Notes under the pieces: generated by a model
What the model saw: only the letters and a program-made list of their open reading frames with translations
What the model was told of the DNA's origin: nothing
The model's database searches: none
NCBI GenBank assembly: GCA_043818275.1
Contig: JBDRFY010000050.1
Location: 5,387 to 69,386 of the forward strand
Direction of reading: 5' to 3'
Source: a bacterium
GTDB taxonomy: Bacteria; Babelota; Babeliae; Babelales; JAUWHS01
Length of the DNA stretch: 64,000 nucleotides
Program-made: the position numbers and the translations under genes
Shown: piece after piece, positions 12,177 to 63,906 of the stretch
Position numbering within the stretch: position 1 is the stretch's first letter
Layout: each line of letters starts with the position of its first letter

Positions 12177-12332
12177 CCCCGCTCGTCCTGAGCGAAGTCG
12201 AAGGATATCGAGCGACAAGCTAAAAACAACCAATTATTTAATGTAGAATTAAACTTTATATTGTTCATTTCAATAATTTTATTTCATTTAGTTTACCGCT
12301 CGTAATCCTTCGACTACGCTCAGGACGAGCGG
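12177..12332. repeat. GC-rich inverted-repeat element (family A) in the only long intergenic gap of the array
   Basis: Left copy ccccgctcgtcctgagcgaagtcgaaggatatcgagcg (12177..12214). Right copy ccgctcgtaatccttcgactacgctcaggacgagcgg (12296..12332) is its near reverse complement. An AT-rich spacer of about 80 nt separates them. Confidence 0.8.
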
Positions 12333-12423
12333 ATAGAGTTAATATTCTATGAATAAAGATACATTATGGCATAACATCAACTCACAAAATAATATCTCTA
12401 TAACTTTCAAATAATCAACCCTA

Positions 12424-19959: not shown

Positions 19960-20028
19960 AATCAAAATTATAAATTTTATTTTGTTGAAGAAATTTTATT
20001 TTGAAATTTATTATTTTTTATAAATAGA

Positions 20029-20303
20029 GATCCTGAACTTGATTCATAACTGTCCAAAGTGTTTGAAATGTTTTAGATAAGGATAAAATTAAACTCTCCC
20101 GTTCGCCCTGAGGAGGAATTTTGAAAAAATTTCGTCTCGAAGGGTAATCCAAATAAAAAATTGATTTTATAAGGAATATCCTTCGAGACGCTCTCAATCG
20201 CTAAACGCATTTCGAGCTCCTCAGGACGAACGGATGGGGTAAAAATTTATTTTGTTTAAAGGTTTTTTATCACTTTGGACAGTTATGAATCAAGTTCAGG
20301 ATC
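20029..20303. mobile_element. Non-coding nested palindromic element (MITE-like) with perfect 33-bp terminal inverted repeats
   Basis: gatcctgaacttgattcataactgtccaaagtg (20029..20061) is the exact reverse complement of 20271..20303. An inner inverted pair, cccgttcgccctgaggagg...cgtctcgaagg (20098..20146) versus ccttcgagacg...ctcctcaggacgaacgg (20178..20234), belongs to repeat family A. No ORF. Confidence 0.75.
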
Positions 20304-20363
20304 TCTAAATTTTATATAAGCAATTCAATTTATAGTTCCAACCAAAAATTAAGGAGTCAAAAA

Positions 20364-23085: not shown

Positions 23086-23161
23086 GGGCCCATAGCTCAG
23101 CGGTCAGAGCAGTCGGCTCATAACCGAAAGGTCCCAGGTTCAAATCCTGGTGGGCCCACCA
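23086..23161 (+). tRNA. tRNA with a CAT anticodon (elongator Met or lysidine-type Ile2), encoded CCA
   Basis: Cloverleaf read by hand: gggccca/tgggccc acceptor stem, tagctcagcggtcagagc D arm, ctcataa anticodon loop, ccaggttcaaatcctgg T arm. It has no C1:A72 mismatch, so it is not an initiator. The C4/C5 acceptor pairs resemble Ile2. Confidence 0.9.
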
Positions 23162-23337
23162 TACTTCGCTAAAGCTTCGTATGGCGCAGCCATTTTTTAA
23201 ATGATTGATTTTGAATTTTAAAGAAACTTTCAACTTAAAAAGCGAAGTATGCCCTTCTCCGTCCTTCGCATAAAGCTTCGGAGAACTCTGCGAAGTTTGA
23301 CACGAAGCAAAGTTAGCTCGAAGAGCGAAGTAGGGCA
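23162..23337. repeat. tRNA 3' trailer module plus a block of CTTCG/CGAAG-rich GC islands (family C)
   Basis: tacttcgctaaagcttcgtatggcgcagccatttttt, then gcgaagtatgcccttctccgtccttcgcataaagcttcggag, tgcgaagtttgacacgaagc and gctcgaagagcgaagtaggg. Related strings recur at 47086..47367 and 61823..62449. Confidence 0.7.
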
Positions 23338-47141: not shown

Positions 47142-47233
47142 GGAGAGATGGCTGAGTGGTCGAAAGCGCACGATTGGAAATCGTGTATGTCACGAAAGTG
47201 GCATCGAGGGTTCGAATCCCTCTCTCTCCGCCA
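47142..47233 (+). tRNA. tRNA-Ser (GGA), encoded CCA
   Basis: ggagaga/tctctcc acceptor stem, ttggaaa anticodon loop, long variable arm tatgtcacgaaagtggcatc, gagggttcgaatccctc T arm. Confidence 0.9.
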
Positions 47234-47367
47234 GTCTTCGCTCTGACGAGCTTCGCCTGGCGCGGCCAGTTTTTTAAATGAATTGATATTATTAGAAAAA
47301 GTTAGCGAAGACTGTCCGGCGAAGTAAAACTAACATTTTAAATTTCGTAGTACGAAGACGGACGGCT
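47234..47367. repeat. tRNA 3' trailer module plus family C CGAAG-rich repeats
   Basis: gtcttcgctctgacgagcttcgcctggcgcggccagtttttt, then agcgaagactgtccggcgaagt (compare agcgaaagctgtccgccgaagc at 62389) and gtacgaagacggacggc. Confidence 0.65.
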
Positions 47368-47388
47368 TGAAATAATTGTTTTAAAGTT

Positions 47389-47462
47389 GGGGTAAGTTGA
47401 TAAATAGCAAAATCTGTCAGGTCCGGAAGGAAGCAGCAGGTGTTACCTTGTCGCTGTACCCC
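47389..47462 (+). ncRNA. ffs: Signal recognition particle RNA (small 4.5S type)
   Basis: It contains GTCAGGTCCGGAAGGAAGCAGC, matching the domain IV core of E. coli 4.5S RNA as I recall it. Closing helix ggggta...tacccc. A T-run follows. The ends are approximate. Confidence 0.8.
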
Positions 47463-47466
47463 TTTT

Positions 47467-47934
47467 TTAATCCAGAGCATCTTCATAATCTTGTAAAATT
47501 TTTTCAATATCTTTTAAATTAAATTCTTGCGCATAATCAATTAAATTTTTTCCATCAGATACAAAACGCGCGCATATAATCATTGAAACTTTTTCACAAG
47601 AATCTAATAACTTTACCAGGGTTTGATTAATTCCCAATGCTGCGCAAACTTCAATTTTTTTAATTTTATCATCATCTTTATAACCACGTAACTTAAATAA
47701 AAATTCTGCAAAACCATCCCAATTAACAAACAATAAATATTTTGGTTCTTCTTGTCTTAAAATTTGAGATAACTCAAAAAGATCTCTCACTGTTTTGCAA
47801 GCTTCTAATCTTTCATTAACAACATATAAAAATTCCTTTGACATTTTTTTATTTTCTTCTTTTCCTGCAAAAGTAAAATCATTTGAAAAATTTAATAAAA
47901 AAATTATCGTTAAAAAAATATTAGTAAATTTCAC
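47467..47934 (-). CDS. Secreted hypothetical protein
   Basis: GTG start after AAGGGGGA. Signal peptide MKFTNIFLTIIFLLNFSNDFTFA. No recognisable motif. Confidence 0.6.
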   Translation of the reverse strand: MKFTNIFLTIIFLLNFSNDFTFAGKEENKKMSKEFLYVVNERLEACKTVRDLFELSQILRQEEPKYLLFVNWDGFAEFLFKLRGYKDDDKIKKIEVCAALGINQTLVKLLDSCEKVSMIICARFVSDGKNLIDYAQEFNLKDIEKILQDYEDALD

Positions 47935-58003: not shown

Positions 58004-58213
58004 GTCCGAAGTGATTTGAAATTCTTGAATTAACTTTATTTTAGCTAAAACGCCCCACCCGCTCGTCCTGAGCTTGTCGAAGGAAATCGAGCGGGTGGGA
58101 TATAAATTCGAGCATATTAAGAGAGTTTATTAATTTTATTATTCAACTGTTCAAAATCACTTCGAACAATCCTGAACCATGGACTGAACTAGATTCAGGC
58201 TTGATTCAGGATC
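58004..58213. repeat. Nested palindromic element related to 20029..20303 (families A + B)
   Basis: Outer pair gtccgaagtgatttgaa (58004..58020) and ttcaaaatcacttcgaac (58150..58167). Core hairpin cccacccgctcg tcctgagcttgtcgaaggaaa tcgagcgggtggg (58054..58099). The right end is ttgattcaggatc (58201..58213). Confidence 0.7.
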
Positions 58214-61777: not shown

Positions 61778-61822
61778 CCAATCAGTTAAATATTTGATAA
61801 AAATAATATATTGAAATTTACA

Positions 61823-61957
61823 TGCGCCTCCCTCGACCCTTAAGGGCTCGGGACAGGTTCCGCTTCCCCCTTCGCTCTTCGAGCTTCGGAGGACAAGCAA
61901 TTGGATAAATAATTTCACCGTTCTCCCTGAGAAGCCACCATGGCATCTCGAAGGGTT
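61823..61957. repeat. GC-rich repeat block upstream of tRNA-Arg (family A and C copies)
   Basis: ccttcgctcttcgagcttcggagg (61869..61892, family C) and ccgttctccctgagaagc...atctcgaaggg (61918..61954, family A, reverse orientation). Confidence 0.65.
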
Positions 61958-61986
61958 AAATAAATTGAAATATAAAAATTATACGT

Positions 61987-62063
61987 GCGCCTGTAGCTCA
62001 ATTGGATAGAGTACCGGACTTCGAATCCGTTGGTTGCAGGTTCGACTCCTGCCAGGCGCGCCA
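61987..62063 (+). tRNA. tRNA-Arg (TCG), encoded CCA
   Basis: gcgcctg/caggcgc acceptor stem, cttcgaa anticodon loop, gcaggttcgactcctgc T arm. Confidence 0.9.
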
Positions 62064-62136
62064 TCCTACGCCAAGGCTTCGGATGGCAGGCCATCTTTTT
62101 TATGGAATTTTTATTACATACCTATAACTCAAATGA

Positions 62137-62200
62137 ACCCTTCGACTAGCTCAGGACTTCGAGTTTCCTAAACTCGGGGTTCACTCCCGAAGAATTGAGG
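62137..62200 (+). pseudogene. tRNA-Arg(CCT)-derived fragment (pseudo-tRNA) fused to the family A repeat core
   Basis: ccttcgac-tagctcagg-acttc-gagtttcctaaactc-ggggttcactcccgaag. It shares tagctcagg and a 15-nt exact anticodon stem-loop (gagtttcctaaactc) with the tRNA at 62236. The D arm does not close. Confidence 0.45.
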
Positions 62201-62235
62201 GACCGCAGATCAAAAATGAATTTGACATTGAATGT

Positions 62236-62312
62236 GTGCCTATAGCTCAGGTGGATAGAGCGAGAGTTTCCTAAACTCTAGGCCGCAGGTTCGAGTCCTG
62301 CTAGGCACACCA
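62236..62312 (+). tRNA. tRNA-Arg (CCT), encoded CCA
   Basis: gtgccta/taggcac acceptor stem, agagt ttcctaa actct anticodon arm, gcaggttcgagtcctgc T arm. Confidence 0.9.
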
Positions 62313-62449
62313 GCTTTCGCTAAAGCTTCAGCTGGCATGCCAAATAAATTAATGAATTTTTAAATAACTTATAAGAACCATTGATAGCGAAAGCTGTCCG
62401 CCGAAGCTCTTAAGAGCGTAGGAGGACTGGCCAAAAATTAATAAAAATT

Positions 62450-62692
62450 ATGCATTACGTTTATATCATTCAATCAATAAATTACCCCCAAAAACGATAT
62501 GTTGGATGCTCAAACAATATAAAAAAACGTTTGACCAATCACAATTCAGGAACTACTTCTCATACCAGAAAATATAAACCTTGGGAACTTATTGTATGTA
62601 TATGCTTTAAAAATAAAGATAAAGCCGTAGAATTTGAAAAATATTTAAAGTCTGGTTCAGGAAGAGCTTTCTCTGCAAAAAGATTTTTCTAA
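62450..62692 (+). CDS. GIY-YIG nuclease-domain protein (small stand-alone YhbQ-like type)
   Basis: HYVYIIQS...KRYVGCSNNIKKRLTNHNSG...KYKPWELI...A.EFEKYLKSGSGRAF. Confidence 0.8.
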   Translation: MHYVYIIQSINYPQKRYVGCSNNIKKRLTNHNSGTTSHTRKYKPWELIVCICFKNKDKAVEFEKYLKSGSGRAFSAKRFF

Positions 62693-62709
62693 TCATTTCG
62701 TACCGCAAA

Positions 62710-63906
62710 ATGCACATACACCAAATTTCTGCTATTCTGCTGTATTGTTTTATAGCAAATCGTTTTTTAGGTAAAAGGGGTTATCAGGTGAACCTATTAG
62801 ATTTTGTGTTCAAAAAAATATTATGGCTATTTATCTTTACAGGAATACCATTCGTTATCTTATGTAAAGACGACATCGTTTTTCGTGATATTTTGGGTAA
62901 CGAGAGCATTCTCAATCCAACCGTAAAAAAACAAATACATGAAAAATATTTTTGGCTCAAAAATTCTATCTATTTTAAATCTCTGGAAGATCCCAAAAAT
63001 AAAAAAGAATCTGTGCGCAACCCCAAATGGGTGCGAGAAATATGCAAAAGCGATCCATCGATTGCAACACTTACGGTGCAAACTGAAGATGGACTTACGT
63101 TACCATGTTTATACTTTGATCGAGGCAAAGAGAACCTGGTGGTGATGGGACATGGCCTTGCGGATGTTTCTTATAAAATGATTTTGTACGCGGAAATATT
63201 TCATGACTGTGATGTATTAATTATTGGATTTCGTGGGCACAGTTTAGCAGCATGGTATGAACTGCGTCCATGGAAAAGGTTTTTTAATATCGACTTTAAT
63301 TGCAAATTTGGAGAGAAAGAGCAATTAGATGTTTTTGCAGCAGTTGAAAAAGTAAAAGAATTAAAAAAATATGAAAATATTATTGGCTTTGGACCATGTT
63401 ATGGAGCGTTTGTTTTGGCAAAAGCGCAAGGAATTAAGGAAGCAAATAATGAAAAATTGTTTGATAAATTAATTTTGTATGAAAGCTGGCCGAATGGTAA
63501 GGCATTTATTGAAAAGTACGCAAAAGATCCAGGTATTGCTATTAACCACCAAAAACATAGTTATTGCGCTAATCTCACACTGTGTAAGAATGGTCATCTA
63601 AAAAAACTATTTTTATGGATTATCCAAACTTTTTTTGAAATCAACTGTGATAAGTTAAACTTAGTACCATATCTTCAAAATATCAAAAATACACCAGTCT
63701 TATTGTTGCATGCTACTAATGATATAATTGTCTCAAATGAAGAGTTTGAAGTTGTTTTTAATTCATTGGCAACTCAAAATAAACAGGCCGTCTTTTTCCC
63801 CTGCACGCATTCGCGTTCTCACGTCTGGGAAAAAGAGGTTTTTGCATATGTTTGCAATGAATTTATTTATGCGAAAGAGAAACATGAAAATTTCAAAAAA
63901 TTATAA
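62710..63906 (+). CDS. Alpha/beta-hydrolase-fold protein with a possible Cys nucleophile
   Basis: N-terminal TM helices. VVMGHGLAD, nucleophile-elbow-like IIGFGPCYGAFV (GxCxG), LLLHATNDIIV, CTHSRSH. Confidence 0.5.
   Translation: MHIHQISAILLYCFIANRFLGKRGYQVNLLDFVFKKILWLFIFTGIPFVILCKDDIVFRDILGNESILNPTVKKQIHEKYFWLKNSIYFKSLEDPKNKKESVRNPKWVREICKSDPSIATLTVQTEDGLTLPCLYFDRGKENLVVMGHGLADVSYKMILYAEIFHDCDVLIIGFRGHSLAAWYELRPWKRFFNIDFNCKFGEKEQLDVFAAVEKVKELKKYENIIGFGPCYGAFVLAKAQGIKEANNEKLFDKLILYESWPNGKAFIEKYAKDPGIAINHQKHSYCANLTLCKNGHLKKLFLWIIQTFFEINCDKLNLVPYLQNIKNTPVLLLHATNDIIVSNEEFEVVFNSLATQNKQAVFFPCTHSRSHVWEKEVFAYVCNEFIYAKEKHENFKKL

Follow-up and report, generated by a model that had tools for sequence, protein, structure and literature searches.

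Hairpin trailers at tRNA 3′ ends in a Babelota chromosome segment are probably the left ends of a small selfish element with a GIY-YIG nuclease gene

Introduction

We analyzed a 64,000-nt chromosome segment of a bacterium (GTDB lineage Babelota, Babeliae, Babelales, JAUWHS01; GenBank assembly GCA_043818275.1, contig JBDRFY010000050.1, positions 5,387 to 69,386), hereafter the window, in which every tRNA gene is followed by a hairpin trailer, h1, and in which one of these trailers is part of a unit with a gene for an 80-amino-acid (80-aa) GIY-YIG nuclease. Several described systems share part of this arrangement. For example, the Seg proteins of phage T4 are site-specific, free-standing GIY-YIG homing endonucleases, and SegB lies in the T4 tRNA gene cluster (PMC2330249). 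The unit resembles them in placing a putatively selfish GIY-YIG gene beside tRNA genes, where it is present in some relatives and absent from others, and the Seg type of spread, in which an empty site is cleaved and the gene is copied together with its flanks, would fit the duplicated tRNA tails that accompany the unit. Seg proteins are roughly 200 aa or longer and have a separate DNA-binding region, whereas the protein of the unit has 80 aa, consists of the catalytic domain only, without an extra DNA-binding domain, and is assigned to the SLX1/UPF0213 branch. The unit also differs from the Seg genes in its covarying hairpins, its exact site at the CCA, its chromosomal location, its spread over many phyla and its apparent movement between tRNA genes.

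The REP, BIME and REPIN-RAYT repeats are likewise short, imperfect-palindrome hairpins that occur singly and as inverted doublets, with many copies lacking a gene and a few accompanied by a small nuclease-type gene, and in these repeats, as in the unit, it is the hairpin form and not the linear sequence that is conserved. As in REPINs, we find an inverted doublet (h1 and a second hairpin, h3) and gene-less copies, in the window and at other loci. In contrast to REPIN-RAYT systems, the protein is of the GIY-YIG type, with no HUH/Y1 transposase, and there is no consistent GTAG head; furthermore, the unit is strictly placed at the CCA ends of tRNA and transfer-messenger RNA (tmRNA) genes and spans phyla, whereas REPINs are species-specific. 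Elements that move by tyrosine integrases into tRNA and tmRNA genes share with the unit the 3′-end target, a gene that is kept intact and a duplicated tail fragment. Compared with these, the unit has no recombinase, is 0.1-0.45 kb and not kilobases in size, and has hairpin ends; a direct repeat of the tRNA 3′ end, 14-21 nt long, is present in 11 related loci and in none of the window copies.

Two further systems concern RNA. Theta ribozymes, which are found in phages, have the double pseudoknot of the hepatitis delta virus (HDV) ribozyme and a catalytic C, and only 4.5% of their tRNAs have an encoded CCA (PMC10879173). Like the unit, they are structured elements that begin within a nucleotide of the tRNA 3′ end; unlike them, the unit always has an encoded CCA that is part of the structure, shows no HDV-like fold or Rfam match, and is located in bacterial chromosomes. 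In E. coli, the terminators behind monocistronic tRNA genes (proK/proL) are removed by an endonucleolytic cut at or near the CCA (PMC8860583), and these resemble the trailers in that a hairpin and a T-run lie a few nucleotides past the CCA, where such a cut would remove them. Only the second hairpin (P2) of three window copies fits this description, whereas h1, h3 and the inverted repeat A′ have no counterpart there. We class the unit among selfish nuclease-gene elements at conserved RNA genes, and the chance that it represents an entirely new class of element is fair. It is apparently undescribed: our literature search, in which few subscription journals were covered and an earlier description is therefore possible, returned no account of the motif and none of GIY-YIG genes located at the ends of tRNA or tmRNA genes in bacteria, and Rfam 15 contains no family for the element.

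Four tRNA genes with one trailer

The window, which has a G+C content of 30%, contains four tRNA genes called by both ARAGORN and Rfam, i.e., a tRNA with anticodon CAT (Met, 23086..23161), tRNA-Ser (GGA, 47142..47233), tRNA-Arg (TCG, 61987..62063) and a second tRNA-Arg (CCT, 62236..62312). All four are on the + strand, as are all features of the trailers and units described below unless stated otherwise. A first-pass annotation of this DNA had claimed a shared trailer layout behind all four genes, and the sequence reads as written there: each trailer has the form CCA-NNN-T(T/A)CGC-short loop or stem-loop-GCTTC-N′N′N′-TGG and starts at the encoded CCA. In the Met copy (23159..23184), CCA 23159-23161 forms the first 3 nt of h1, which reads CCATAC TTCGCTAAAGCTTC GTATGG (CCATAC-TTCGC-TAAA-GCTTC-GTATGG). 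The Ser copy (47231..47260), CCAGTC TTCGCTCTGACGAGCTTC GCCTGG, has a longer inner stem (GCTC-TGAC-GAGC) and a single T.C mismatch in its outer stem, the Arg-TCG copy (62061..62086), CCATCC TACGCCAAGGCTTC GGATGG, is a TACGC variant, and the Arg-CCT copy (62310..62335) reads CCAGCT TTCGCTAAAGCTTC AGCTGG. A covariance model of h1, built from 47 distinct copies outside the window, matches these four sites alone in the 64 kb (E-values of 8e-13, 3e-6, 4e-13 and 1e-12, respectively, i.e., 4e-13 to 3e-6), the only other signals being three weak partial matches within the same intergenic regions. Seven occurrences of the core T(T/A)CGC-N-GCTTC are present in the window, four behind a CCA and three nearby.

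When folded as RNA, h1 forms a 6-bp outer stem that includes the CCA, a symmetric 3x3 UUC/UUC internal loop and an inner GC stem in three of the four copies, and the Ser copy forms the inner stem and the second hairpin only. Folding energies of single trailers are near those of shuffled sequences (z about -1) and uninformative, so the support for h1 comes from its recurrence and covariation.

Behind three of the tRNA genes (Met, Ser and Arg-CCT), an inverted copy of the trailer start, including the triplet of that locus, is present 55-80 nt downstream (A′), and each A′ is followed by h3, in which GAAGC...GCG(A/T)A takes the place of TTCGC...GCTTC. At the Met locus, A′ (AGCGAAGTATG, 23241..23251) is the inverted copy of CATACTTCGCT at the tRNA end, the two forming a long-range pairing, P1, and h3 (GCCCTTC...GCGAAGTAGGGC, 23251..23336) has an expanded apical part with a nested h1-like core at 23265-23279. 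At the Ser locus, A′ (AGCGAAGACTG, 47304..47314) is the inverted copy of CAGTCTTCGCT, and h3 (GTCCG...CGGAC, 47314..47363) is followed by a signal recognition particle (SRP) RNA gene and no open reading frame (ORF). At the Arg-CCT locus, A′ (TAGCGAAAGCTG, 62385..62396) is the inverted copy of CAGCTTTCGCTA, and the GAA-type h3 (GTCCGCC-GAAGC-TCTTAAGA-GCGTA-GGAGGAC, 62396..62427) has an h1-type core on the minus strand. The ORF for the 80-aa SLX1/UPF0213-like GIY-YIG nuclease, identified by Pfam and PDB matches and an AlphaFold model, follows at 62450..62692. No A′ or h3 was found downstream of P2 at Arg-TCG. The window contains one complete copy of the element (Arg-CCT), two ORF-less copies with A′ and h3 (Ser and Met, the latter classed as such because no ORF follows its h3) and one hairpin-only copy consisting of h1 and P2 (Arg-TCG).

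These longer regions are more informative in folding. For 62305-62452, the minimum-energy structure consists of h1 and h3 and the centroid structure of P1 and h3 (z -3.1 versus shuffles), and the Met region is far more stable than its shuffles (z -3.85). The pairings h1 (X:X′) and P1 (A:A′) both covary and exclude each other, and A′, as a third partner 55-80 nt downstream, adds to the alternative pairings of h1 and P2.

Distribution and covariation of the hairpin

We searched one genome per species with the 27-nt pattern GCCANNNGAAGCYTTRGCGWANNNTGG, in which the triplets were left free and for which we calculated about 2 chance matches, and found at least 119 loci in many phyla. Among the matches listed, these include Verrucomicrobiota, Patescibacteria, Nitrospirota, Planctomycetota, Alpha-, Gamma- and Deltaproteobacteria, Acidobacteriota, Bacteroidota, Dependentiae, Bacillota, Chloroflexota, Armatimonadota and others. 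The pattern lies on the CCA of a tRNA gene in most of the listed loci and of a tmRNA gene in several, and at every tRNA or tmRNA carrier the T(T/A)CGC...GCTTC strand is the sense strand. For the listed loci and the window together, the strict motif is located exactly on the CCA in 75 of 132 tRNA and tmRNA genes (4 of them tmRNA), and approximately 10 further genes have variants with longer apical stems. Overall, the hairpin was seen behind at least 15 different tRNA isotypes in addition to tmRNA. At least 47 tRNAs in the same listed loci have no hairpin (63 of 111 by a looser test), and about 25-30 of the listed copies do not adjoin a tRNA. A search of 72,556 plasmids gave no homologue, and viral contigs gave only two pattern matches.

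The first-pass annotation had also described covarying triplets within the trailer. The window copies pair as it described, with one mismatch (Ser), and the wider data bear the covariation out. NNN and N′N′N′ are fully complementary in 106 of 129 copies among the matches listed, where chance would give 1 in 64, and at least 11 different triplets occur, each with its matched partner. Using the 47 distinct 27-mers, 96.5% of cells pair compared with 84.2% in shuffles, and double-change cells number 59 compared with 20 +/- 5.7, a value reached by none of 500 shuffles. Among 175 distinct copies, A′ is a perfect match to the triplet of its own locus in 59 and differs from it at one position in a further 32, whereas triplets swapped between copies give 8 perfect matches, and within A′ the 5-mers also follow their partners, with TTCGC pairing with GCGAA and TACGC with GCGTA. 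The 5-mers of h1 are separated by 2 to ~40 nt of self-complementary, otherwise unconserved sequence, with an apical stem of 2 to ~15 bp. An apical stem that varies in length while the 5-mers stay juxtaposed makes sense only for a folded strand, and these comparisons indicate that the conserved entity is the folded strand and not a linear site.

Individual loci show some further arrangements. In Sphingorhabdus sp. EL138 (L014), the unit is present inside an rRNA operon, behind tRNA-Ala in the 16S-23S spacer; this host, whose record does not bear the MAG label found on the other loci, may be a cultured isolate and is a possible test organism. In a viral contig (L200, 1035-1061), the hairpin is antisense and abuts the 5′ end of a tRNA-Val gene. 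In Bacteroidota and other loci (L038, L054, L094, L004, L057, L058, L062 and L084) the hairpin does not adjoin a tRNA and has tandem heptamer-like repeats alongside (GCTCAGG, CCTGATC, GGGTTAC), and in the first three of these a small nearby ORF resembles by eye a four-helix-bundle protein of the 23S rRNA intervening-sequence type.

A GIY-YIG nuclease gene is linked to the hairpins

The sole gene family that recurs near the hairpin encodes GIY-YIG proteins, with 30 ORFs in 28 loci among the matches listed; most of these ORFs start no more than ~350 nt downstream of the hairpin, and 29 of the 30 are on its strand. A reciprocal, protein-seeded metagenome scan identified at least 581 relatives, of which we examined the best 62 loci that had sufficient upstream sequence. 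In 42 of these 62, a tRNA or tmRNA gene on the same strand ends no more than 700 nt upstream. By regular expression, h1 is present in 21 of the 42, beginning at the CCA in all 21, and the remaining 21 have variant hairpins at the same place, some with outer stems that begin just after the CCA. Of the 12 loci where the regular expression detected neither feature, at least 10 still carry recognisable modules, and in two loci (L144 and L194) P1 is present as a simple hairpin. This reciprocal test indicates, at the level of sequence, that the nuclease gene and the hairpins belong together.

Copies from distant phyla have a common module order, i.e., CCA; h1; C-RRG-CCA(NNN); a spacer; A′, with the form GCG(A/T)A-N′N′N′-T; h3; 8-60 nt; and the ORF, which starts M-x-YVY...YLKSGSGRAF.... 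The CCA-NNN repeat after h1 pairs with the preceding TGG arm as P2, and h1 (TTC type) and h3 (GAA type, which is the h1 type on the other strand) form the inverted doublet. The spacer between the hairpin and P1 measures 7-281 nt, mostly 15-65. In one locus (L165, 707-1130) a different GIY-YIG-like ORF, apparently longer (by eye), lies immediately behind a tmRNA gene. Further on there is a 21-nt duplicate of the tmRNA tail and then a hairpin with another GIY-YIG gene, an arrangement that resembles nested insertions at a single tmRNA end.

The 80-aa protein matches the Pfam GIY-YIG family (PF01541, E 1e-16), its closest solved structures by sequence are SLX1 and uncharacterised UPF0213 proteins, and its AlphaFold model (34 homologues; mean predicted local distance difference test score of 96.3) has as best Foldseek matches At-HIGLE, the Slx1 nuclease domain (template modelling score 0.73, 33% identity) and BH0048. 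Residues Y5, Y17, R27 and E63, the conserved Tyr, Tyr, Arg and Glu of the GIY-YIG fold, are invariant or nearly so. We place the protein, on this sequence and model evidence, in the SLX1/UPF0213 branch of the GIY-YIG nuclease superfamily. The catalytic domain spans it from end to end, with no extra domain; the NCBIfam group I intron endonuclease model scores 18.7 bits, below its cut-off of 56, and searches of PADLOC and PHROGs gave no meaningful defence or phage family match. A protein recorded as 'MAG: GIY-YIG nuclease family protein [bacterium]' is identical to it, and the closest relatives that carry a name belong to Candidatus Dependentiae, Babeliales and TM6, which makes this lineage the probable source of the window; 616 close homologues are present in the protein database. 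Branched DNA structures, such as flaps and junctions, are the substrates of SLX1 enzymes, as the titles of PDB entries reflect, and stand-alone bacterial SLX1-like GIY-YIG proteins are very common. Our literature search found no functional study of such proteins and almost nothing on UPF0213/COG2827. The present association ties one large SLX1-like subfamily to a precise address, the tRNA/tmRNA CCA end, and to a set of covarying hairpins.

Signs of mobility and a proposed mechanism

Several features of the related loci are suggestive of mobile DNA. In 11 of them the last 14-21 nt of the tRNA or tmRNA gene are duplicated, either after the unit or between two units, with the left edge of the repeat falling in the T-loop or T-stem. 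For example, in L039 an 18-nt direct repeat, CCACCCTCTCCGCCAGCC, is present on both sides of a 328-nt unit. On the opposite strand, the right end of this unit reads as an h1-type hairpin (CCATC-TACGC-TAAA-GCTAC-GATGG), and inverted hairpin ends therefore surround one gene inside a direct repeat of the target. Tandem units are present behind several tRNAs. Comparison of two Sphingomonadales contigs that are orthologous on both sides showed that a 325-nt, gene-carrying part of one (L050) is replaced by unrelated sequence in the other (L034), and an internal deletion of the nuclease gene was identified in L114. Spacers are 75-91% identical behind different tRNA isotypes or tmRNA, e.g., 91% over 98 nt for a Lys and Phe pair, with a further such pair, Leu and Met, on a single contig. 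At ~95-200 of L034, where L050 has the nuclease gene, there are other hairpin repeats, of the GTCATCCTGA/TCAGGATGAC kind.

We consider it probable that h1, the trailer hairpin, is the left end of a small selfish element, which carries an 80-aa GIY-YIG gene and resides at the CCA ends of tRNA and tmRNA genes. The first-pass suggestion of a repeat targeting tRNA 3′ ends came near to this and understated it, in that the repeat is part of a larger, GIY-YIG-carrying unit that is also found on tmRNA genes and in many phyla. From these sequence features we infer the following mechanism. The element would insert at the 3′ end of a tRNA or tmRNA gene, duplicating 14-21 nt of its tail and regenerating an intact, CCA-ending gene, so that the target stays functional; insertion would leave a working tRNA gene because the first bases of the element are, or overlap, the CCA. 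Recognition would be of folded hairpins and not of linear sequence, most likely by a structure-specific nuclease on extruded or single-stranded DNA, with the nuclease acting on the folded hairpins or on the branch point of P1 and h3, exactly at the boundary of tRNA and element. Copies without the ORF would represent relics, either decayed or non-autonomous, in the manner of REPIN repeats, and the trailer of a relic would be removed from the tRNA by the usual endonucleolytic cut near the CCA.

A number of observations weigh against this interpretation. Cleavage, transposition or excision was not observed, and the loci recovered include no clean pair of empty and occupied sites with exact boundaries. 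The 80-aa protein has no DNA-binding domain, which leaves its finding of tRNA genes unexplained. The window-type subfamily has both hairpins upstream of the ORF and not flanking it, so the transposon-like layout of L039 is not general. Tail duplications are absent from the copies in the window itself, and their variable lengths elsewhere could reflect junctions formed by repair or recombination just as well as a target-site duplication of fixed size. Wobble mismatches give no clear signal as to whether the folded strand is DNA or RNA (G.T versus A.C is 7 versus 7 in the outer stem of h1 and 16 versus 20 in P1), and hairpins away from tRNAs are mostly downstream of co-oriented genes (19 versus 7), which fits a role at the RNA level.

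We propose only tentatively, as a possibility that we do not favor, that the unit represents a previously unrecognised class of mobile element, i.e., a hairpin-ended element of 0.3-0.45 kb whose sole protein is an 80-residue SLX1-like nuclease, which inserts at the CCA end of whatever tRNA or tmRNA gene, recognises structure and no long sequence, rebuilds the CCA from its own hairpin and leaves gene-less relics that hosts such as this Dependentiae-like bacterium reuse as tRNA terminators. Were this so, it would provide the first biological role for part of the uncharacterised UPF0213/COG2827 family. If mobile, the unit would be a new, integrase-free use of tRNA genes as safe landing sites by selfish DNA, and a compact, structure-guided nuclease system.

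The second hairpin and termination

P2 reuses N′TGGC, which overlaps the 3′ arm of h1, as its 5′ arm. The first-pass annotation had described this second, overlapping hairpin with a 4-bp stem; it is real and mutually exclusive with h1, and its stem is 5-6 bp. A T-run, noted there as usual behind it, is present in three of the four copies: Met (ATGGC-GCA-GCCAT, 23181..23198), Ser (CTGGC-GCG-GCCAG, 47257..47275) and Arg-TCG (GGATGGC-AG-GCCATC, 62081..62101), where a terminator scan flags 23181-23193, 47257-47269 and 62081-62096, respectively. The P2 of Arg-CCT (TGGCATGCCA, 62333..62342) has none, and the scan found no T-run or terminator behind this gene. The end of h1 lies 8-10 nt ahead of the T-run. 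Across the scanned loci, the T-run is absent from most copies in GC-rich genomes, whereas a T-rich run follows P2 in most copies of the AT-rich lineage of the window, which suggests that the P2 and T-run of the gene-less relics probably serve as tRNA terminators in this AT-rich genome. In uncultured lineages such trailers will confuse the annotation of terminators, small RNAs and repeats, and they mark tRNA loci that have been invaded.

Alternative explanations

A host-maintained signal for termination or processing at tRNA and tmRNA 3′ ends, with the small GIY-YIG protein as a trans-acting processing factor, would account for the trailers behind all four tRNAs of the window, for the terminator-like P2 and T-run of three copies, for the fixed orientation relative to transcription and for the complementarity that all segments retain even in ORF-less copies. 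Such a signal would not be expected to be near-identical in sequence and at the same time patchy across many phyla, to be missing from so many tRNAs in the very loci that carry it, or to occur at non-tRNA sites and beside unrelated small genes. T-runs, moreover, are absent outside AT-rich lineages, the closest relatives of the protein are nucleases specific for DNA structure, and the tail duplications, tandem arrays and present/absent gene segments are hallmarks of mobile DNA. We regard this explanation as unlikely, and a host 3′-processing or termination module, the first-pass alternative, is not supported as the primary nature of a sporadic, nuclease-linked hairpin with non-tRNA copies, although a terminator role is plausible for the three copies with a T-run.

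We give an equally low weight to a role of the trailer in the co-transcribed nuclease mRNA as an RNA switch or processing element, i.e., an attenuator in which h1 is the anti-terminator and P2 the terminator, or a self-processing or RNase-guided cleavage site that would part the tRNA from the mRNA exactly at the CCA, as theta ribozymes do behind phage tRNAs. Two mutually exclusive, covarying pairings in an attenuator-like X-X′-X layout would fit such a switch, as would the alternation between h1 and P1, each beside h3, in the folds of 62305-62452; the ORF is always on the strand of the tRNA, the sole ORF-bearing copy of the window is the one without a T-run, and h3 has a conserved G.A and wobble mismatches that lean to the sense strand (G.T 12 versus A.C 4). 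Structured RNAs directly behind tRNAs also have a precedent in the phage theta ribozymes (PMC10879173). Nevertheless, ORF-bearing copies in other Dependentiae-like loci retain the T-run, an HDV-like fold is a poor fit given the range of hairpin-P1 spacers (7-281 nt) and a variable first nucleotide, and the tail duplications and non-tRNA copies are left unexplained. Nor is there a match to any ribozyme or cis-regulatory family in Rfam: at gathering score, the window and 16 related loci gave only tRNA, tmRNA, rRNA, SRP and chance-level matches, and at E-values up to 10, 61800-62720 gave no match to a ribozyme family. A switch at the RNA level is compatible with mobility, and the two could coexist. 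As tRNA 3′ ends are classic integration sites and duplicated tails are present in relatives, the trailers might also be attachment-site remnants of integrase-mediated islands or prophages. We exclude these almost entirely because no integrase or recombinase family recurs among the ORFs within ~1 kb of the 129 listed copies and the units are only 100-450 nt; in addition, the hairpin is not tRNA-derived, and the same hairpin occurs behind at least 15 isotypes and tmRNA.

Further observations

Some candidate structures were examined and rejected. The modules were mapped by hand to the HDV-like (theta) ribozyme layout, where the variable spacer and first base are a misfit; two known stable folds, the mini-hairpin d(GCGAAGC) and the tetraloop C(UUCG)G, each fit some NNN types only; and a candidate covariation of the h1 3′ arm with the h3 5′ arm fails outside the GCC type.

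In the window, the small SRP RNA gene (47386-47468) is located directly behind the gene-less Ser element, where other copies carry the nuclease ORF. Upstream of tRNA-Arg-TCG, an isolated h1-like core (TTCGC-TCTTCGA-GCTTC, 61871..61887) is present in a GC-rich, structured stretch (61824-61955) that also contains CCACCATGGC, and this stretch may be the relic of a further copy of the element. Between the two tRNA-Arg genes, a fragment (62136-62215) that neither ARAGORN nor Rfam calls as a tRNA shares TAGCTCAG and the exact 15-nt anticodon arm GAGTTTCCTAAACTC with tRNA-Arg-CCT.

A second family of GC-rich hairpin repeats, CG(C/T)TCGTCCTGAGC-N-TCGAAGGA...CGAGCG, is intergenic and occurs in the window at 12180-12225, 12297-12335, 20096-20240, 58053-58100 and 62139-62165, and also in L033 and L044, in the latter with a copy directly ahead of a duplicated tRNA tail. 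Copies of this family are enclosed by a 91-nt inverted repeat (20025-20115 and 20217-20307; 78% complementary, with outer ends near-perfect over ~36 bp), and the whole region, 20025-20307, which lies between two genes, looks like a miniature inverted-repeat element.

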